DNA of 64,000 nucleotides from Myxococcota bacterium (GTDB lineage: Bacteria; Myxococcota_A; SURF-8). The notes beneath the pieces are model-generated. The model made no database searches, had not been told where the DNA came from, and was given only the letters and a program-made list of their open reading frames with translations. The DNA lies in contig OZ223209.1 in the NCBI GenBank assembly GCA_965140415.1, positions 293,974-357,973 of the forward strand, given 5' to 3'. Positions 6,024 to 54,911 of the stretch are shown here, in pieces. The position numbers and the translations under genes were made by a program. Within the stretch, counting starts at the first letter, position 1; every line of letters starts with the position of its first letter.

Positions 6024-6179
6024 TACAAAGTCCCCTTCCCTCGGGTTGCTTGTTTCTCGCTGGCCGCTTTTCGATGAGTTATTATAACGTAGAAGCGCAG
6101 ATGGAATCCAAGTATTATTCACACGCTTCACCGGCTGGGCAGCATCACAAGAAGTTGCAAACCTGTATGATTTCTGGGT

Positions 6180-6259
6180 GGCGCGGGCTAAGCCGCAGAC
6201 TTGCCCGTGGTCATCAAGAGCCACATGGGCATGCTCCGTTTCACTTCGCTTGGCCAATG
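6180..6259 (-). repeat. REP-like ~80-bp hairpin repeat, copy A
   Basis: Reverse complement aligns with copies at 28510-28586, 34038-34111 and 54709-54786; shared core GCTTGCCCATGTGGCTCT...GGCAAG.CTGCGG.TTAGCCCGCGC. Confidence 0.6.
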
Positions 6260-6388
6260 ATTCCCGTTTTCAAAGCCAATCGCAATATCTTGTGATGCAC
6301 CCTAACCACTTGAAGAAATATGGAAACTCTTGACAATCGGGGGCTTGCGGGTAATCGTGTCCTTTCCGTCTTAGGGAAAGGATTCAAG

Positions 6389-11359: not shown

Positions 11360-12661
11360 ATGAAACGTTCACAGGCGCTGTTGGCTTTGGTTGTAATGGT
11401 CTGGCTGTCACTGTTCTTGTTTGCCTGCAATGAGGATGATTCAACGCCGGATGGCGATACGGATTTCACGGAAGATGCGGAAGCGATCGATGGCGATCTG
11501 GAAGCGGAACAGGAAGAGATTCAGCCCAATCCCAATGATGAATTGGCCAAACTGACGATACACCCTTACATTCAGCGCGTGTCGGAACGCGAAATCACCA
11601 TCGCCTGGGAAACGGATTTAGAAGCCTCCAGTCGGGTGGAAATCACACCGCCGGAGGGCGACCCCTTCGAAGTACGTGGGGAAACCTTTAAAATCGAAAT
11701 CCGCGACGATCTCGACCTGGTGCGCATGGATGCTCCCGAAGGCTTCCAGCACGTTGTTGTCGTCAAAGAGCTGGAACCATCTACCAATTACGATTACCGC
11801 GTGGTCTCTTTGGAGGAAGCTTCCGAAAGCTACAACGTTCATACCGCGCCTGCACCGGGCGAACCGCTGCGTTTCGTCGCCTACGGTGATAACCGCACCA
11901 ACCCCGACATTCACGCAGAAGTTGCCGACGCCATTGCCGCGCAAACTCCCGATCTGGTGCTGAATACCGGGGATCTCGTCGAGACCGGCTTTGCGCTGGA
12001 CGAGTGGCTGGAATTCTTCGAGGCGGCTACATATGCCTCCTCCGCGCCGACACTTCCCGCCGTTGGCAATCATGAAGCGTTTGGTGGCTTCTCCCTGTTC
12101 GCCGGGTATTTCTCCAGTTTCTTCGAGAACATGAACATGGACGTCCCCCTGGCGACGACCTACCGCTACGGTGGTTTGTGGATTCTGGTGCTCAACTCCC
12201 AGTTGAACATCGAAGATGGCACCGATCTGCGCAAATTCGCGGAAGAAAAACTGAAGGAAGCCGATAACGATCCGGGAATTGAGTTTCGTTTCGTGATGCA
12301 CCATATTCCGCCGTATACCTGGTCCAATCACAGTTCCGAGGATTTCGTTTCTCTGGAAGGTCGGGAACAGTTGCACGCACTGTATAAAAAGCACAAGGTC
12401 ATGGCGGTACTGAACGGTCACAACCACTGCTACGAGCATTTCGAACGCGAAGGCATCCATTATCTGGTGCTGGGTGGTGGCGGCGCGCCGTTGTACTCGG
12501 CGGATAGCAATGCTATCGAAGAGGAGCGCCCCTTCCGCGTGATGGGCAAGAAGGCCAACCATTACGCCCTGTTCGAAAGCCGACAAGATGGCTTCCAGGT
12601 CAGCATCAAAGAAATTCCCGGTGATCTGGAAATCGAGAACTTCCTGATTCACAAACCGTAA
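11360..12661 (+). CDS. Calcineurin-like metallophosphoesterase lipoprotein (purple acid phosphatase-like)
   Basis: ATG at 11360 with AAGAGG SD; lipobox (LFLFAC) and acidic linker; metallophosphoesterase motifs GDNR, GDLVETG, GNHE, NGHNHCYEH. Confidence 0.7.
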   Translation: MKRSQALLALVVMVWLSLFLFACNEDDSTPDGDTDFTEDAEAIDGDLEAEQEEIQPNPNDELAKLTIHPYIQRVSEREITIAWETDLEASSRVEITPPEGDPFEVRGETFKIEIRDDLDLVRMDAPEGFQHVVVVKELEPSTNYDYRVVSLEEASESYNVHTAPAPGEPLRFVAYGDNRTNPDIHAEVADAIAAQTPDLVLNTGDLVETGFALDEWLEFFEAATYASSAPTLPAVGNHEAFGGFSLFAGYFSSFFENMNMDVPLATTYRYGGLWILVLNSQLNIEDGTDLRKFAEEKLKEADNDPGIEFRFVMHHIPPYTWSNHSSEDFVSLEGREQLHALYKKHKVMAVLNGHNHCYEHFEREGIHYLVLGGGGAPLYSADSNAIEEERPFRVMGKKANHYALFESRQDGFQVSIKEIPGDLEIENFLIHKP

Positions 12662-12688
12662 AAGCAGAGGTCTTTTGGGTATTGTAGC

Positions 12689-12722
12689 GGCGCGGGAGGT
12701 TTTCCTCTCGCGCCGTTTGTGG
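12689..12722 (+). terminator. Hairpin terminator between convergent genes
   Basis: 11-bp stem GGCGCGGGAGG/CCTCTCGCGCC (one G-U) with TTTT loop, followed by GTTTGTGG. Confidence 0.5.
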
Positions 12723-17345: not shown

Positions 17346-17535
17346 CTGTTGGGTTGGGGGTTGTCCTCCACTCGACTCTGCAAAAAATTCACTTTAGAAT
17401 CCCATAGAAATGTGTCTGTAGTCATATCTCGGAACCGGGTTTGGGGTCAAGCGTTTTCGGGGGAATGGCGGGTTGACGCCTCGCCGCTACAGACAACATC
17501 AATGGTAATGATTGAGAACTTACGAGAAATTTCTC

Positions 17536-24729: not shown

Positions 24730-24936
24730 ATGATGATTGTCAGCGATTATATCGCCTTGATAGCGGGAACATTCATTTTGATCAGTGTAGCGCTGGGTAT
24801 CTGGGTTACACCCTGGGCTTTCGCCTTTACTGCCTTTGTCGGGGTGAACCTGGCTCAGTCGGCGTTCAGCAAAACCTGCCCGATGATTGCACTACTACGA
24901 AAACTGGGAGTTCCCAGCGAGAGAAGCGAGACTTAG
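24730..24936 (+). CDS. DUF2892 (YgaP-like) small membrane protein
   Basis: ATG at 24730 with AGGAGG SD; 68 aa with two TM segments and ...FVGVNLAQSAFSKTCPMIALLRKLGV, matching the DUF2892 pattern as I recall it. Confidence 0.55.
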   Translation: MMIVSDYIALIAGTFILISVALGIWVTPWAFAFTAFVGVNLAQSAFSKTCPMIALLRKLGVPSERSET

Positions 24937-24949
24937 ACCAGGTATTATT

Positions 24950-25079
24950 CACTGGTTCTATGAATTTGTGCCATAGTCTTACACGATCCGAGATCGTGGA
25001 AGGCTGTGTGTTTTCTTATAGTTACACACGGCTTCCCGGAATCTCCATTCCGTTAGAACAGGCCACATCCCGATTACTC
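24950..25079 (+). repeat. 130-nt structured dispersed element, copy 1 (candidate ncRNA)
   Basis: About 87% identical to 41361-41490 in the same orientation; three predicted hairpins. Begins 13 nt after the DUF2892 stop. Confidence 0.6.
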
Positions 25080-25101
25080 CCTATAATGAATGATATCTGC
25101 T

Positions 25102-26664
25102 CTAGTTCTTGTTTGAAGCTTCCCGATCGAGCAGAAAACGGATTCCATGGGTCAGACGTCCCAGGTTGATGGGTTTATGAACCCATTGGGCGTGGGCAAA
25201 TCTCTTTGCTTTCAGGCTTTTTTCCATCTTGGGATCACCTACCACAAATACAAACGCTTGATCGGCTTTGATTTTTCGGATGTCTTCGGCGATGCTGGCC
25301 GGATCGAGCATGCTGTGCAGATCCGTATCGAAAATCACCAGATGGATTTCATCCTGCAATTGCTCGAACAAGGTGATGCCGTCTGCCGTGGTATTGGCGG
25401 GAATCACGCGGTATCCAAGGCGCGTCAAACTGCTTTGCAGCAAACTGCGTACCACTTCTTCCTCGCTGATCACCAGTACGCTTTCTTCGCCCCGCAACGG
25501 TTTCTCGCGTTCTTCCTCGTGTTTTTCCATCGCGGGGGTATGTCGAGGCAGCATGATACTGACCGTGGTGCCTCCATCGGAACCCATATCCACGAAAACC
25601 CGTCCGCCGTGACTGCGAGCAATGACATCCACCATGGAGAAGCCGAGACTGAAGGGATCTTTGTTCGGGTTATTACTGAATTCGTAATCGAGCAATGACT
25701 TCAAACTCTCTTCATCGATTGCTCGCCCCGTATCGGAGAGACAAATCAATACATGCTTACCGGCGGCCAGACCGCGCTGCGACCATTCATCGCCTTCGCG
25801 TACCACTTCCGCACGGGTCGATAATGTCACTTTGCCTTCGGTCATGGTGTCATTGACGTTGATGCACAGATTCAGCATCATCTGCTGAATTTGCGCCGGA
25901 TCTCCCTTGATTTGCAGGCTGTGCGAACTGATGCGCTGCAATAAGCGGATCGAGGTCTTCATCGTGACGAGCATGATCTTGTAGACGTATCGCACCACGG
26001 AATTGATATCGAAGATTTCGGTGACTTTCGTGCGCTGACGCGAAAACTGCAACAGTTGTTGAGTCAGATCCGCTGCACGAACGCAACTGTCCTCGATAAT
26101 CTGCGAATATCCCGCTAAGGTTTCATCATCTTCACAAAGAGCGTGAATCAAGTTGGCGTATCCCAGGATGCCGGAAAGCAGATTGTTGAAATCATGCGCG
26201 ATGCCACCGGCCAGACTGGCAACAGCTTCCATGCGTTTGGCATACACCAGATCCTGTACCAGGGAATTGCCGTCTTGGGATTGATTTAAACCGATCACCC
26301 GCCTTACCAGAGCGGGGAGGATCAAGGTCCAGTTGTTATCCAGAACCAGGTAGCTGACCGCGCCATGGTCCAAAGCCAGGGGAACTCGGCTGATATTGCC
26401 GGGTTCGACCAACACCAATACGGGAACATCCGCCAATTGTTCCGACCATTCCAGGGCTTGCCGATCGATTGGATTTGTGGAATTTTCCAACACGACCAGA
26501 GCCAGATCGGCGGGAGAAACCGAGACTTCGTCGGTGATTGCTTCCAGTGAAGATACGGGGATCAGCGATAGGGATTCCTGGACATTACCCAGAACCAATT
26601 CGCAGGTCGATACGAATTCCTTATCCGCTCCAACAACCAGAATACGCCACTCAACCTGTTTCAT
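25102..26664 (-). CDS. Hybrid sensor histidine kinase with C-terminal receiver and degenerate N-terminal receiver-like domain
   Basis: HisKA (GGIAHDFNNLLSGILGY) and HATPase core; C-terminal receiver with the conserved Asp (VIFDTDL); N-terminal receiver-like fold has Glu at the phospho-acceptor position (LVVLEN). Confidence 0.8.
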   Translation of the reverse strand: MKQVEWRILVVGADKEFVSTCELVLGNVQESLSLIPVSSLEAITDEVSVSPADLALVVLENSTNPIDRQALEWSEQLADVPVLVLVEPGNISRVPLALDHGAVSYLVLDNNWTLILPALVRRVIGLNQSQDGNSLVQDLVYAKRMEAVASLAGGIAHDFNNLLSGILGYANLIHALCEDDETLAGYSQIIEDSCVRAADLTQQLLQFSRQRTKVTEIFDINSVVRYVYKIMLVTMKTSIRLLQRISSHSLQIKGDPAQIQQMMLNLCINVNDTMTEGKVTLSTRAEVVREGDEWSQRGLAAGKHVLICLSDTGRAIDEESLKSLLDYEFSNNPNKDPFSLGFSMVDVIARSHGGRVFVDMGSDGGTTVSIMLPRHTPAMEKHEEEREKPLRGEESVLVISEEEVVRSLLQSSLTRLGYRVIPANTTADGITLFEQLQDEIHLVIFDTDLHSMLDPASIAEDIRKIKADQAFVFVVGDPKMEKSLKAKRFAHAQWVHKPINLGRLTHGIRFLLDREASNKN

Positions 26665-26981: not shown

Positions 26982-27010
26982 TTGCCAGATAGCTCGATTG
27001 CTGGTATGAT
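26982..27010 (+). promoter_or_regulatory. Candidate sigma-70 promoter (TTGCCA-N17-TATGAT)
   Basis: -35 TTGCCA at 26982-26987, 17-nt spacer, -10 TATGAT at 27005-27010; 40 nt upstream of the regulator ATG at 27051. Confidence 0.3.
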
Positions 27011-27050
27011 ACGCATTCTGGGGTGTTTAATTGCAGCGGCTAAATCCACA

Positions 27051-28445
27051 ATGAGTCGAAAATATAAAATTCTGGTTGTTGATGACGAACCAACCGTCCG
27101 AACGGCTATCGCCAGTTATCTGCGTACCTTCAATTTCGAAGTTGAAGAAGCGGAAGATGGTGAATTTGCTAAAGATCTTTTAGGCAAAGCCCACTTCGAC
27201 CTGATCGTGACCGATGTCACCATGCCACGTTTCGACGGTCTCCAATTGACTGCGTATGCCAAGGAGCACAATCCACAGGCGGAAGTCATCGTCATTACCG
27301 GCTACGGCACAATTGAAATGGCGGTCGAGGTCATGAAGCGCGGAGCCTTCATGTTCCTGCAAAAGCCCATCAAGCTGCCGGATTTAAAAGATCAGGTGGA
27401 AAAAGCACTGGGTCTGATGCTCGACAGCAACTTCACGGCCAGTTCCATTCGCAATAACGTGGCCAAAGAGGGGGTCATCGGTCGACTGGTTAAAAGCGAC
27501 GATGCCAAAATGACCGAACTGTTCAGCATCGCCAAGGTGATTGCTCCCACCGATTCGACGGTATTGATTACCGGTGAAAGCGGTACCGGAAAAGAGCTGT
27601 TGGCGCAATACATTCATTTCAACAGCGGTCGTGCCGAAGGCCCCATGATTCCGATCAATTGCGGAGCCATTCCGGAAAGCCTGATGGAAAGCGAATTCTT
27701 CGGGCATGTCAAAGGAGCCTTCACTGGCGCAGTCAACGCCCGCAAAGGTCGCCTGAGGCTGGCCGATAACGGCACGCTCTTTCTGGATGAGGTCGGCGAA
27801 TTACCGCTGCACATGCAGGTCAAGCTGCTGCGCGTATTACAGGAAAAAAGCTTCGAACCGGTCGGCTCCAGCAAATCCGAAAATTCCGATTTTCGCGTGA
27901 TCGCGGCCACCAATAAAGACCTGGAAAAAGCGGTACAGGAAGAACAGTTCCGCGAGGATCTCTATTACCGTCTCAACGTCATCCCGCTGCATCTGCCGCC
28001 GCTACGGGCGCGACGCGGGGACATCATGAAGCTGGCCAACTATTTCGTCGATCGGTTCAACAGGGAAAAGAACTGTCGGATCAGCGGTTTCAGTGACGAT
28101 GCCGGAAACGTGCTAAGCGCTTATTCCTGGCCGGGAAACATTCGCGAACTGGAAAACATCGTAGAGCGCATGGTGATCATTCATCAGCGCGGTTTGATCG
28201 AAGTGGAAGACTTGCCCCAGAAAATCCGCAGTGGGTCATCCGTGAAAGCCCCCACCAAAATGGAAGACGAGGAAATCCCGGATAACGGCATCAACTTCGC
28301 CGATGAAGTGGATCGGCTGGAACGCAAGTTGATCGGGTTGGCCTTGCAACGCACGGGCGGCAACCGCAACCAGGCGGCAAAGATTCTGAACTTGAATCGT
28401 ACAACACTCGTCGAAAAAATCAAAAAGAAGAAAATAGAGATTTAG
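27051..28445 (+). CDS. Sigma-54-dependent response regulator (NtrC family)
   Basis: Receiver (KILVVDDEP...LIVTDVTMP), AAA+ sigma-54 activator core (VLITGESGTGKELLA, GAFTGA, ESEFFGH) and C-terminal HTH (QAAKILNLNRTTLVEKIKK). Start moved to ATG 27051. Confidence 0.85.
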   Translation: MSRKYKILVVDDEPTVRTAIASYLRTFNFEVEEAEDGEFAKDLLGKAHFDLIVTDVTMPRFDGLQLTAYAKEHNPQAEVIVITGYGTIEMAVEVMKRGAFMFLQKPIKLPDLKDQVEKALGLMLDSNFTASSIRNNVAKEGVIGRLVKSDDAKMTELFSIAKVIAPTDSTVLITGESGTGKELLAQYIHFNSGRAEGPMIPINCGAIPESLMESEFFGHVKGAFTGAVNARKGRLRLADNGTLFLDEVGELPLHMQVKLLRVLQEKSFEPVGSSKSENSDFRVIAATNKDLEKAVQEEQFREDLYYRLNVIPLHLPPLRARRGDIMKLANYFVDRFNREKNCRISGFSDDAGNVLSAYSWPGNIRELENIVERMVIIHQRGLIEVEDLPQKIRSGSSVKAPTKMEDEEIPDNGINFADEVDRLERKLIGLALQRTGGNRNQAAKILNLNRTTLVEKIKKKKIEI

Positions 28446-28509
28446 AGCAGATACTGTCCACTTCTGCTCATCGAGTAATCGAGATGTCTCATGGCCTCAC
28501 GGTGTGTGG

Positions 28510-28586
28510 CATGGGCCAAGCGGAGAAAAACGAAGCTTGCCCATGTGGCTCTCGAACACAGGCAAACCTGCGGTTTAGCCCGCGCC
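28510..28586 (+). repeat. REP-like ~80-bp hairpin repeat, copy B
   Basis: Aligns with copies A, C and D; the listed ORF 28491-28706 is just a translation of this repeat. Confidence 0.6.
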
Positions 28587-28642
28587 CCCCTGAAATCAAC
28601 TATAGGAGTTATTATCCATTATTCGCGATGTCTTACTGTAGC

Positions 28643-28667
28643 GGCGAGGCGTAAGCCCGCCGTTTTC
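28643..28667 (+). terminator. GTAA-tetraloop hairpin with T-tract (terminator-like), related copy at 33955-33977
   Basis: GGCG-a-GGC [GTAA] GCC-CGCC then GTTTTC; shares the string GTAGC.GCG.AGCGTAAGCCCGCC with the second copy. Confidence 0.4.
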
Positions 28668-33813: not shown

Positions 33814-33954
33814 AACAATTCGGTTTAATTGGAGGAGTTGCCATTCCCTTCGATGGATCGGGATTGCAATTCTAGAGTGGTAGCATCATTTTCCCGTAGG
33901 TCGGCTCCAGTGTAGCCGACAATTCTGAGCAAATGTCTAAAAATTCCCGTAGCA

Positions 33955-33977
33955 GCGGAGCGTAAGCCCGCCTTTTT
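33955..33977 (+). terminator. GTAA-tetraloop hairpin with T-tract (terminator-like), related to 28643-28667
   Basis: GCGG-a-GC [GTAA] GC-CCGC then CTTTTTAT; ~140 nt downstream of the WYL regulator stop. Confidence 0.4.
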
Positions 33978-34037
33978 ATACCGGTTCTTAGTCATTTCTA
34001 GCCACGAATTTCAATAACGTGTGCCATCTATAATAGA

Positions 34038-34111
34038 GGGTCTAAGCCGCAGGCTTACCCGTGAGAGCCACATGGGCAAGCTCCGATTCCTTTCCGTTTT
34101 CCAAGCCCATC
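34038..34111 (-). repeat. REP-like ~80-bp hairpin repeat, copy C
   Basis: Reverse complement aligns with copies B and D (CGGAGCTTGCCCATGTGGCTCTCACGGGTAAGCCTGCGGCTTAGACCC); stem kept through G-U pairing. Confidence 0.55.
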
Positions 34112-41284: not shown

Positions 41285-41297
41285 GCTGATTTACAAT

Positions 41298-41330
41298 GCC
41301 CTTCGGCTTTACTGTCGAAGGGCATTTTTG
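41298..41330 (+). terminator. Rho-independent terminator
   Basis: Stem GCCCTTCG/CGAAGGGC with 10-nt loop, followed by ATTTTTGTGTG; 14 nt after the stop at 41284. Confidence 0.65.
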
Positions 41331-41360
41331 TGTGTAGACTAGGTATCAGTCATATTTAGC

Positions 41361-41490
41361 CACTGATTCCATGAATTTGTGCCATAGTCTTACGCGATCG
41401 AAGATCGTGGAAGGCTGTGTGTCTTCAATAGGTTACACACGGCCTCCCGGAATTTTCATTCCGTGAGACCATGGCACATCCCGATTACTC
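41361..41490 (+). repeat. 130-nt structured dispersed element, copy 2 (candidate ncRNA or larC leader)
   Basis: About 87% identical to 24950-25079; differences sit in predicted loops or keep pairing. Lies between a terminator and the larC start 50 nt downstream. Confidence 0.6.
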
Positions 41491-41539
41491 GATGGACAGG
41501 AATGAGTAGTATCTATTCGAAATACAAGGGAGACGAATC

Positions 41540-48323: not shown

Positions 48324-50699
48324 ATGAACCAGACTGAAAACAAACGTGCGATCCTGCTGCCGTTCGTGGTATTCATCACCATTTCCCTGGTCTTTCTGGG
48401 GATCTGGGTGTCCTCTCGGCAACAGCAAAAGAATGTTCGGGAAAACCGCACTGCCCAGATTGCCGAACAGGTAGCGATCCGGCTGGAAACCTATTTCGAA
48501 ACTCGTTTCGATATTGTAGGCATGATGAAAGTCGAATGGGAGCAGGGCAGGCTTCATCAAAAAGATGAATTCCGCAAGCGCGCACTGTATATCCAGAAGC
48601 AATTCGAAGGGCTACTGGCCATCAACTGGATCGATCCCGAGGGGGTGATTCGCTGGGTGGTGCCGGAGGAAGAAAACCATTCCGCACTGAATCGTGATCT
48701 GAAACGCCATCCCGGTGGTGCCTCGAAAACATTCATGCTGGCTTATGAAAGCAGCCAATTTCAGGTTACGCCGCCCATCGATCTGTTGCAGGGCGGACGT
48801 GGTATTGCCGGGTATTTCCCTTTGTCTCTCCAAGGCAAACAGGACGGATACTTAAACGCTGTTTTCCGATTGAAACCTTTGGTGGAAAACTGCCTGTCGC
48901 GCGGTGTGTTGAAAAACTACGCCTTTGTTCTGCACGATGGTGCGCACAAGGTGTATCAGAACGGAACGGATGACGCTTTGGCCGGGAACATCATGCAATC
49001 CGCGCAAATGCTGACCGTCGGAAACCGGCAGTGGAGCCTGCAACTGATGCCCATGCCGGCGACTCTGGCTCGATACCAGACCAATATGCATCATTACTTT
49101 CTGGCCCTGGGTTTCGTGCTGGCTTTCGGGCTGGCCTATCTTACCCGGCGTCTGATTCTTCGCGAACAGGCCTTATCCGAAAGTGAGCATAAGTTCCGCG
49201 CGCTGGCCGACTCTACCAGCGCCGCGATTTTCATTTCCTATGACGATCACTATATCTATGCCAACCCAGCGGCCATTCGCCACACCGGGTACAGTTTCGA
49301 AGAGCTTTGCAAGATGAACCCGGAACAGATCCTGCACCCGGATAGCATGGCCTACATCATGCGCTTGCGTGAACGGGCAAGGCGGTTGAATGAAGCAATA
49401 CCTTCCCGGCTGGAGCTACGAGTGGTTACGGCGGATGAAAGTGAACGTACCGTAGAGGTGACTTACGGAAGCTTCGAGCTTGGCGGAGTTCCTGCCGTGA
49501 TTACCACCTCTTTCGACGTCACCGAGCGCAAACAGGCGGAACAGAAACTACGCGAGGAGGAGCATAAATACCGTACCATTTTCGAGACCAGCGGCAGCGC
49601 CATGGTGAGTCTGGATAAGGACGCCATCATTTTACTGGCCAATAAGGAATTCGAGAAACTGAGCGGATACACCCGGAAGGAAATCGAAGGCACGAACCTC
49701 TGGTCGAAGCTGCTCGATGCGGAAAGTCTGCAAAAACTGGAGAAACTCCGCAAACTGGACGATCTGGACGAGAAACTGACGACACATAGCCAGGAAATGG
49801 TTCTGATTAACCGCAACGGGAAAACCATCGATTGTCTCAGCCTGATCAACGTGGTTCCCGGTACCGATCAATGGGTCATGTCGTTTGTGGATATCAGCGA
49901 ACGTAAACAGGCCGAATTGCAGATGCTGCGCGCGGAGAAAATGGCGGCTTTGGGGCAGATTATCGCCGGTGTCGCGCACGAGATCAATAACCCCAACAAC
50001 TTTATCTATTTCAATCTTCCCATTCTCAAGCGCTATGTGGATGCCATCCGACCGATCCTCGATCGGGAGGCCGAGGAAGTAGAGCATCTGCGCATTTTGA
50101 ACATGTCCTACCATGCCTTTTTGGAGGATCTGTACAAGCTGATTGAAAACATGCAGGACGGCTCGGAGCGCATTACGGGAATCGTATCCGAATTGAAGAA
50201 TTATATCCGCAGTCACGAAGCGCAGGAGAAAAAGCCGGAGCCGATTGCGGCGATGGTCGATCGTGTCATGATCCTGGTGGGCAAGCAGGTTCGGAAAATG
50301 GTCAAGCATATGGAAATCGAACTCGATCCCGACCTGCCCAAGGTGCTGGTGCATTCGGGAAAAATCGAACAGGTGCTGATCAACCTGATCATCAATGCAG
50401 GCCAGGCGGCGAATAAAGCGGACAGTCGCGTGCGCGTGTCCGCCAATCGACACCCGCAAAACCGGAAAATCGTACAATTGCGTATACAGGACAACGGCTC
50501 GGGCATCGACAAAGAATTGCGCGAGAAGATCTTCGATCCCTTTTTTACCACCAAAAGCCGGGATTCAGGCACCGGACTGGGCCTGGCGATCAGTCAGCGT
50601 ATCATCGAAGAACATGACGGTCGCCTCTTTCTCGACGAAACGGAAGCGGAAACGACCTTTATTATTGAACTTCCCATGGCAGAAAGCGAATACGCATGA
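48324..50699 (+). CDS. Sensor histidine kinase with periplasmic sensor and PAS domains (NtrB-like partner)
   Basis: TM-periplasmic-TM N-terminus, PAS domains, HisKA ([16 protein letters not shown]) and HATPase ([23 protein letters not shown]). Start moved to ATG 48324. Confidence 0.8.
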
Positions 50700-52057
50700 G
50701 AGCGTCTGTGTTGATTGTAGATGACGAACAGGCTTTTTTAGATAGTCTGGCGCGGATGCTGCGCATGGAAGGATACGAAAATCTCTGTATCCGTTCCGAT
50801 TCGACCCAGGTTCCGCAACTCATTGAAAAGCAGCGTTTCGATGTGGCTTTTCTGGATGTAACCATGCCCGAGCTAGATGGCATGGACCTGTTGAAAATCA
50901 TTAAAGAAAAACAACCCCAGACGGAATGCATCATGTTGACGGCGCAGGACAGCATCCAGACCGTCATGCAGGCCACACGCTTGGGTGCTTATGATTATCT
51001 GATAAAACCGATTCTGCCGGAGCGGGTGATTCACAGCCTGGAAAAAGCACTGGAACATCGACGTTTACTGGAATCGCTGCGCATGCGTTCGGAAACCGCA
51101 CAAGCGCAGACACTGAATCAACCTGAAGCCTTTCAAGCCATCGTGACCGGCAATTCGCGAATGCTGAAACTGCTGCACGAAGCGGAACTGCATGCCGCCA
51201 GCAGAATTCCGGTTCTGATTACCGGTGAAACCGGAGTCGGCAAGGAACTGTTGGCGCAGGCGGTGCATCGTTGCAGCCGGATGCGGCAGGGAGCCTTCGT
51301 TCCCGTAAATATGCTGGCGCTTTCGCCTACGTTATTCGAGTCGGAATTTTTCGGCCATGTCAAAGGTGCATTCACCGGCGCGGAGCGCAACAAAACGGGC
51401 TATCTTGCCTCTGCCGATCAGGGCAGCCTGTTCCTGGATGAAATCGGCGATTTGAGCCTGGAAATACAAGGCAAGCTGCTGCGTATTTTACAAGAGGGAG
51501 AATTCACTCCGGTCGGCAGCAGCCAATCCCGACCGGCAAACGTCCGCTTCATCGCCGCGACCAATCAGAATCTGGAAGAACAGGTCCGCAAACAGCTTTT
51601 CCGCAAGGATCTGTTTTATCGACTTCAATTCGCCCATTTGCATCTGCCTCCTTTGCGGGAGCGCCGCGACGATATTCCTCTTTTGTGCGCACACGCGCTG
51701 GAGCGGTTCGGCAAGGAAGACATGTGCCTTTCAGATGCCGCGCTACAGCGCTTGCAGCAGCACGACTGGCCCGGCAATGTGCGCGAATTGATGGGAATTC
51801 TGGAGGCGGCGGTCAACCTGGCCGAGCAGGGAGAAATTCTTCCATCTCACTTGCGGTTACCAAAATCTTCCAGCCCAAAACCTTTGCCTGCCAATCCGTT
51901 GGCAATGGATGAGCTGCAACCGCTGGAAGACATCGAACGGGAGCATATTCTACGTGTTTACAATGCGTTGGATCACAATAAAAGCCAAACTGCGCGCGCC
52001 TTGGGCATCGGTCTGCAAACCCTGCATCGAAAACTGAAAAGTTACGAAGTTTCCTGA
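50696..52057 (+). CDS. Sigma-54-dependent response regulator (NtrC family)
   Basis: Receiver (VLIVDDEQ...VAFLDVTMP), AAA+ sigma-54 activator core (VLITGETGVGKELLA, GAFTGA) and C-terminal HTH; ATG overlaps the kinase stop. Confidence 0.85.
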   Translation: MRASVLIVDDEQAFLDSLARMLRMEGYENLCIRSDSTQVPQLIEKQRFDVAFLDVTMPELDGMDLLKIIKEKQPQTECIMLTAQDSIQTVMQATRLGAYDYLIKPILPERVIHSLEKALEHRRLLESLRMRSETAQAQTLNQPEAFQAIVTGNSRMLKLLHEAELHAASRIPVLITGETGVGKELLAQAVHRCSRMRQGAFVPVNMLALSPTLFESEFFGHVKGAFTGAERNKTGYLASADQGSLFLDEIGDLSLEIQGKLLRILQEGEFTPVGSSQSRPANVRFIAATNQNLEEQVRKQLFRKDLFYRLQFAHLHLPPLRERRDDIPLLCAHALERFGKEDMCLSDAALQRLQQHDWPGNVRELMGILEAAVNLAEQGEILPSHLRLPKSSSPKPLPANPLAMDELQPLEDIEREHILRVYNALDHNKSQTARALGIGLQTLHRKLKSYEVS

Positions 52058-54346: not shown

Positions 54347-54708
54347 GTTTCCGCCTCCGAAGATGAATTCCTATTATTCATATCAGATAACCAATGAGAC
54401 GAAAAGGTATCTTGTATTATTCCCACTGTCAACCAAATAATACGATTATTATTAAATAATAGTATGAAATAAATATGTGTTGTTATTACATCGGAATATC
54501 AGAATTTGACAACATGTCAGTATTCCTTGGTGTTTTCATATAGCTATCTGAATGTAGCCGGAATATAGGTATCTGATATTCGGGATACCCTTTTGTTGTC
54601 TCTATCGTATCGTAAAACCCACCGTATCGCTAGGTGAAGCACGGGTGCTGGTTAGGCCGATCCAACGAAGCGCATCACAAATAGTACGATTGCTTTTGAA
54701 AGCGGGTG

Positions 54709-54786
54709 CCAGGGGCAAAGCGAAGAGAAACGAAGCTTGCCCATGTGGCTTTCGAACACGGGCAAGCCTGCGGCTTGGCCCGCGCT
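54709..54786 (+). repeat. REP-like ~80-bp hairpin repeat, copy D
   Basis: Perfect 8-bp stem GCTTGCCC/GGGCAAGC around ATGTGGCTTTCGAACAC; aligns with copies A-C; lies in the AT-rich divergent region between the Rrf2 gene and the oxidoreductase gene. Confidence 0.6.
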
Positions 54787-54911
54787 ACCCAAAGTTAAGA
54801 AGCGGTTGAAAGATTTTGTACTGCACCCCAGACCGCAGGTTGTGCTTGCGTTGATGACACACTGTGTTAAAATCGGCATTGGATTGAATTGAAACAGGAT
54901 GCGAGGCGGGT

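Follow-up and report, generated by a model that had tools for sequence, protein, structure and literature searches.

Introduction

Small palindromic repeats are common and often yield false candidates for structured RNAs. The doublets of REP sequences (REPINs or BIMEs), moved by RAYT transposases, are dispersed hairpin units in which structure is conserved over sequence, and their recognition probably takes place on single-stranded DNA.

The bacterial elements known as MITEs are under 200 bp long, encode no protein and are AT-rich, with inverted ends, TA termini and transcripts that form long stem-loops (Delihas review, PMC2229807). Elements of the IS630 family use TA as their target, which is duplicated upon insertion (PMC2170065), and RUP of Streptococcus pneumoniae is a small MITE with inverted ends that is moved into TA sites by IS630-Spn1 (PMC2229807). 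The Correia elements of Neisseria, or NEMIS, are ∼100-155 bp in length, with ∼24 bp inverted ends, a TA duplication and stem-loop transcripts that can be cleaved by RNase III (PMC2229807). ERIC occupies intergenic, co-transcribed positions and is conserved across genera with no known mobilising enzyme (PMC2229807). Two MITE families of Coxiella burnetii, QMITE1 and QMITE2, were first spotted as small RNAs (PMC5896051).

The stretch of DNA analysed here (the window) covers 64 kb of a 5.98-Mb genome and holds two full copies, A and B, and two partial copies of a repeat that is comparable with these systems. Like ERIC/IRU (127 bp), it is a non-coding imperfect palindrome, intergenic, with TA termini and a long stem-loop (PMC2229807); unlike ERIC, it has a branched three-hairpin core, it is longer, and copy B has no sequence similarity to anything in 5,426 E. 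coli genomes by blastn. It shares small size, inverted ends and stem-loop folding with the Correia/NEMIS elements and differs from them in lineage and sequence, and in that a consensus scan of copies A and B gave no promoter except for a weak minus-strand match at the right end of copy A. The ends of RUP match those of a known insertion sequence (IS), whereas the present repeat has no partner found and its ends are its least conserved part. In contrast with REP doublets, it has no conserved GTAG motif and the window has no RAYT gene; the GTAG-type hairpins that lie nearby are distinct from it in sequence. The QMITE families show that copies of a MITE can resemble or yield structured RNAs (PMC5896051), although their sequences and sizes are unrelated to those of the present repeat.

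A sequence-only reading of the window had proposed that the cores of copies A and B are a candidate structured RNA under selection. We prefer, with a probability of roughly 0.55, to explain the copies as a new family of dispersed palindromic repeats, small and non-coding, of the MITE or ERIC kind, in which the folded core is the constrained part.

Extent and layout of the repeat

Two copies of 130 nt are present at 24950-25079 and 41361-41490 in the same orientation, as the sequence-only reading had it. Its figures of ∼87% identity and about 17 differences come to 18 differences in 130 columns (86.2%) when computed on an ungapped alignment, and the two cores match each other at E 3e-36 (blastn, inside the window). 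The extent of 130 nt is too short: homology continues on both sides to the unit boundaries given in Table 1, and the two 130-nt stretches are the cores of a non-coding palindromic repeat of ∼170-185 bp. Beyond these boundaries the sequences of the copies are unrelated, the homology dropping off sharply at both ends. The right boundary is shared by copies A and B and by one of the partial copies, with homology stopping at ...CTGCTCTA.

Imperfect palindromic symmetry spans the unit, whose inverted ends are ∼20 nt long. In copy A, 16 of 20 positions match between the left end and the reverse complement of the right end, and the symmetry runs through the whole length: comparison of the left half with the reverse-complemented right half gives values of 38 for copy A and 50 for copy B, against a shuffle maximum of 30. 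The palindrome is closer to perfect in copy B, which has a minimum free energy (MFE) of -71.9 kcal/mol. The GC content of copy A is 43% and that of the units 43-45%, compared with 53.8% for the window, which makes the unit AT-richer than its surroundings. The repeat has several of the traits by which a MITE is recognised: it is non-coding, shorter than 200 bp and AT-rich relative to the window, with terminal inverted repeats in A and B. TA is present at five of the six recognisable ends, the exception being the right end of copy B, which is GA; the terminal TA may equally be the last bases of the inverted ends. Between A and B, conservation is higher in the core than at the ends.

Copies A and B share no conserved open frame and have no coding signal. 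The longest ORF through the element, of 69 residues in copy A, has no homolog by protein search. A gene for a small protein or toxin was rejected, since a ribosome-binding site is lacking, the two copies have their stops at different positions, and the majority of the changes are non-synonymous.

Table 1. Features of the repeat and of its surroundings; coordinates are those of the window unless another contig is named.
Feature	Coordinates	Strand	Details
Copy A, full unit	24934-25104	+	171 bp, counting the flanking TA on either side
Copy A, left inverted end	24934-24953	+	TAGACCAGGTATTATTCACT
Copy A, right inverted end	25085-25104	+	AATGAATGATATCTGCTCTA
Copy A, hairpin 1	24982-24998	+	CACGATC cga GATCGTG, 7 pairs
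Copy A, hairpin 2 (central)	24999-25035	+	12 pairs, AT-rich 12-nt loop
Copy A, hairpin 3	25037-25052	+	CGGAAT ctcc ATTCCG
Copy B, full unit	41335-41520	+	186 bp; between terminator and larC start codon, 20 nt from larC
Copy B, hairpins 1-3 (41393-41463)	41393-41409, 41410-41446, 41448-41463	+	
Intrinsic terminator ahead of copy B	41295-41326		Copy B begins 8 nt past the stem
Partial copy, right-end module only	28443-28502	-	78% over 63 nt, E 1.6e-9 (blastn)
Partial copy, left-end module only	33977-34027	+	70.6% over 51 nt, E 0.002 (blastn)
Ends with TA			A-left, A-right, B-left, right end of the right-end partial copy, left end of the left-end partial copy
End sequence of the element			TAGACYAGGTAT...
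Orthologous alleles, cydA / TonB-dependent receptor intergenic site	L022 13773-13872; L023 15113-15264		
Second repeat family, copy 1	6136-6298	+	
Second repeat family, copy 2	28506-28598	-	
Second repeat family, copy 3	34039-34104	+	
Second repeat family, copy 4	54672-54791	-	
GTAG-type hairpin 1	17467-17490	-	
GTAG-type hairpin 2	28638-28661	+	
GTAG-type hairpin 3	33949-33972	+	
GTAG-type hairpin 4	about 33895-33922	+	

Genomic positions and partial copies

Both copies had been described as sitting just 3' of a plus-strand gene, which is accurate in part. Copy A does start exactly at the stop codon of the upstream plus-strand gene, but its other end coincides with that of a convergent gene, so that it takes up the entire gap between the two; one of these genes encodes a YgaP-like membrane protein, the other a hybrid histidine kinase. 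Copy B comes after an intrinsic terminator and directly precedes larC. The setting therefore differs with each copy: convergent genes for A, the upstream side of larC for B and a divergent region for the homolog described below.

Both stop codons that flank copy A are supplied by its own terminal TA plus a G. When copy A and one TA are removed in silico, one strand reads GAG ACT TAG and the other AAG AAC TAA, with in-frame stops for both genes. This reconstructed empty site fits an insertion into the TA of overlapping stop codons, with a chance likelihood of ∼1 in 4. The stop codon of an NtrC-type gene is likewise made up of the terminal TA of the right-end partial copy plus a G.

The two partial copies have the same outer boundaries as copies A and B, and each is fused to a core sequence from a second repeat family (copies 2 and 3 of that family in Table 1, joined to the right-end and left-end modules, respectively). 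The left-end module begins at a TA immediately past a GTAG-type hairpin and its T run. Splitting of end modules from their core, and their joining to a different repeat, is typically seen in DNA that is repetitive or mobile, and not in RNA gene families.

Consensus scans found no promoter or terminator inside copy A or copy B, save that the right end of A has one weak minus-strand match resembling a promoter. A sigma-54 promoter, suggested by TGGCAC in the right arm, was discarded by eye: there is no -12 GC element at the right spacing. No transposase was found among the 28 larger ORFs of the window scanned against Pfam. Nor does the window contain an IS with matching ends, and the end sequences of the element are not repeated elsewhere in it.

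Three hairpins and their pairing

The three hairpins of the sequence-only reading are borne out, with 25 of 25 pairs forming in copy A and in copy B, and so are its two pairing-preserving differences (A-U to G-U and G-U to G-C). Both of these are one-sided, and there are zero two-sided changes between A and B. The concentration of differences in loops is also real: 10 of the 18 lie inside the 21 loop columns, with 2 in the 50 paired columns and 6 in the 59 tail columns. Comparison of paired with unpaired columns gives a Fisher p of 0.0095, and 18 changes spread uniformly would leave every one of the 25 pairs intact with a probability of ∼0.002-0.02; since several of the differences are multi-base events, the true significance is weaker than these computed values. 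The contrast is mostly one of hypervariable loops, the stems having no clear conservation advantage over the tails.

Copy B has an alternative fold, a long hairpin of 63 pairs, at -71.9 kcal/mol. Read in copy A, this fold has 2 two-sided and 4 one-sided changes that preserve pairing; a further 8 pairs are broken and 13 fall in gaps, a picture resembling neutral decay. Loop 1 is complementary to loop 3 by eye in A, B and the homolog (GA/UC, GAA/UUC and GGA/UCC), and this may reflect the alternative extended hairpin.

The folding z-scores are -2.6, -6.4 and -2.5. The two strands are close in folding stability, the plus strand being ahead by 2-7 kcal/mol each time, and the three-hairpin fold on A and B evaluates equally for either strand. 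The covariance model R1, made from the cores of A and B, also matches the reverse strands of these elements, with scores of 52 and 37 bits. On the plus strand, the imperfect hairpin pairs are all G-U.

A homolog in a distant genome

The whole window yields 0 matches to Rfam 15 at gathering thresholds, a check that had been proposed for the two copies, and permissive thresholds around A, B and the homolog yield chance-level matches only (E above 0.3). Exact pattern searches gave one chance match in a genome collection, in a Bacillota coding region, for GATCGTGGAAGGCTGTGTGT, no match in a metagenome collection for ATGAATTTGTGCCATAGTCTTAC, and one chance match in the metagenome collection for a 20-mer; three patterns searched in a viral collection gave chance matches only, as checked with covariance models. 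Plasmids, phages and the 5,426 E. coli genomes contained nothing that matched copy B by blastn.

The source genome is phylogenetically isolated, and the window has a GC content of 53.8%. The nearest relatives in the collections are distant, with 53% identity for the best LarC and 74% for the best CysK. A gene order of cysK, a gene for a ∼1070-residue protein and two ArsA-type ATPase genes is syntenic with ena:ERZ21869602:ctg94825l.

Regions of ∼20 kb around CysK and LarC homologs of relatives, ∼190 kb in total, were searched with a covariance model. One clear homolog was found, at 15101-15191 of contig L023 (ena:ERZ21831104:ctg97090l), scoring 45 bits (E 2e-8) with a model built from A and B alone and matching at 70.6% over 85 nt by blastn (E 2e-7). 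The ∼190 kb contains no further copy. Weak model matches at 11706-11788 and 12608-12703 of another contig, L024, have E ∼0.5 and are without hairpin 2, and we find them unconvincing.

On one side of the homolog is cydA, on the other a gene for a TonB-dependent receptor. Common to A, B and L023 is only a core of ∼95 nt, composed of TGCC..TTAC, hairpins 1-3 and TGAGAC.ATGGC; it is ∼70% identical between genomes whose CysK proteins are merely 74% identical. The inverted ends are not significant in L023 (p 0.62). All 25 pairs are kept in the three sequences, 4 of them changed on both sides, 5 on one side and 0 broken, in counts that come from three sequences with one extra genome and an alignment fitted to the structure, and that are therefore biased towards structure. 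The two-sided changes in L023 comprise one in hairpin 1 and two in hairpin 3. The observed pairing values were reached by 5 of 500 shuffles, and pairing falls to 31-44% when partners are slid sideways. The two arms come together in a closing helix, in which pairing reaches 82%, with zero compensating changes. This pattern is suggestive of distant genomes conserving the fold of the core and not the ends, the reverse of what a classical MITE, reliant on its inverted ends, would show.

The same site in contig L022, whose flanks are nearly identical to those of L023, holds a shorter, rearranged and non-folding version (z +1.16) that retains the F1-like sequence GCGATCGA..TCACGGAAAGGCT. The two contigs thus carry differing alleles of the element, neither being an empty site. 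Their divergence is too large for point mutation in such close genomes, which points to a recent replacement or conversion from another family member. An intact fold is dispensable at the locus between cydA and the TonB-dependent receptor gene; its loss in L022 argues against locus-specific regulation and for a multi-copy, recombining repeat family.

Nature of the repeat

The palindrome, the reverse-strand matches of the covariance model, the TA ends, the AT-richness and the fused end modules all count in favour of a mobile palindromic repeat. On the other side are the presence of only two full copies in the window, the lack of a partner IS and the GA at the right end of copy B. A classical MITE would not account for a core that is better kept than the ends, nor for hairpins that are preserved beyond chance. 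We infer that the copies are mobile and that a TA was duplicated on insertion: they would have spread as DNA, either through TA insertion of the kind carried out by IS630/Tc1-type enzymes or via an as yet unknown enzyme. The part under selection would be the branched fold of the core in its single-stranded state. The source of this constraint may be recognition by the mobilising enzyme, or the hairpin may be tolerated or useful in co-transcribed mRNAs. ERIC and Correia elements are reported to affect the stability or processing of transcripts; any such effect of the present repeat on neighbouring genes would be secondary.

This explanation keeps one half of the earlier proposal of selection on RNA structure. 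The structural half is upheld by L023, where all the hairpins are retained with 4 two-sided changes and none broken. The RNA half is not: there is no Rfam match, consensus scans gave no promoter or terminator beyond the weak minus-strand match, the opposite strand folds almost equally well, and the model matches the reverse strand. The fold of the repeat matters, and nothing shows that it acts as an RNA gene. The sequence-only reading had set a passive MITE, free of structural constraint, against its own proposal. Much of that scenario is in evidence, in the palindrome, the inverted ends, the TA and the fused fragments, but a structural constraint does appear to be present.

A more far-reaching reading concerns the ∼95-nt core, which could be an undescribed structured element, found across genera, that works in single-stranded form: a new class of non-coding RNA carried on a mobile palindrome, or a site in folded DNA recognised by the mobilising enzyme. 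We regard this as speculative, with the odds clearly against it.

Small RNAs derived from MITEs are known, and so the mobile-repeat and RNA readings are not fully exclusive. We nevertheless think it unlikely that the element is a structured RNA serving the host, whether as a small-RNA family or as a cis-acting UTR element, with a closing helix and three hairpins. What speaks for such an RNA is that every hairpin pair forms in A, B and L023, none of the nine changed pairs being broken, that the loops are hypervariable, that the imperfect pairs on the plus strand are all G-U, that this strand is favoured in stability throughout, that the core keeps its identity of ∼70% despite the divergence in CysK, and that the folding z-scores are all negative. 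However, the element belongs to no Rfam family, consensus scans detect no promoter or terminator on its strand (the one weak match, at the right end of A, being on the minus strand), and its contexts are inconsistent, from convergent genes to the upstream side of larC to a divergent region. A degenerate version occupies the orthologous site in L022, fragments are joined to another repeat family, and the three-hairpin fold of A and B is equal on both strands. The covariation itself comes from a single added sequence in a structure-fitted alignment.

A classical passive MITE, on whose inverted ends an IS630/Tc1-type transposase acts and whose hairpins are an unconstrained by-product of the palindrome, is quite improbable. 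It would explain the inverted ends, the TA ends, the small size and the relatively high AT content, and it has a precedent in the TA insertion and duplication of the IS630 family (PMC2170065) and in RUP (PMC2229807). The long hairpin of copy B, with 8 pairs broken against 6 kept in copy A, also resembles neutral decay. The ends of the present repeat are, however, less conserved than its core, and L023 keeps the core without the ends; the local hairpins are preserved beyond chance, with compensating changes; and no partner IS was found in the window. Chance similarity, or segmental duplication of gene flanks, has the low copy number in its favour and nothing else, and is negligible given the E value of 3e-36 between the cores, the unrelated flanks and neighbours, the sharp ends of the homology, the additional partial copies and the homolog in another genome.

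Further feature types were also set aside. An integron attC site would have RYYYAAC ... GTTRRRY boxes at its ends and would sit in arrays behind gene cassettes; on reading of copies A and B the boxes are absent, and the copies lie 16 kb apart among ordinary operons. The defining features of the template or variable repeat of a DGR, of a retron and of a Y RNA are missing, as judged by reading of the sequence and by Rfam.

The inverted ends, the TA and the chimeric fragments guard against misannotating the repeat as an RNA gene. What is unusual among repeats of this kind is that the core fold, and not the ends, is conserved across distant genomes, the same unexplained pattern as that of ERIC. 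If the covariation is confirmed, the repeat would offer a tractable case for what maintains such folds, an enzyme that reads folded DNA or a role at the level of RNA.

Other repeats in the window

The second dispersed family has four copies in the window, with 75-86% identity and no Rfam match. Its central hairpin has 13-14 bp, AGGCTTGCCCGTGT / ACATGGGCAAGCTT, and in the copy at 6125-6316 the inverted ends measure ∼34 nt (p 0.005). Of the four, two are fused to end modules of the element studied here.

The GTAG-type hairpins are REP-like, with the sequence GTAGCRGCGRRGCGTAAGCCCGCC followed by a short T run. The terminator scan did not call them as terminators, and no RAYT-like gene is found in the window. 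Two of these hairpins directly adjoin the chimeric partial copies.

Two further repeats in the window have their source in paralogous genes for sigma-54-dependent response regulators, at 26982-28445 and 50696-52057, the first of which terminates exactly at the right end of a partial copy. Lastly, four in-frame repeats of 49 nt, spaced 135-288 nt apart at 1985-2609, lie within the gene for a 930-residue IgGFc-binding-like protein and correspond to repeated protein modules.
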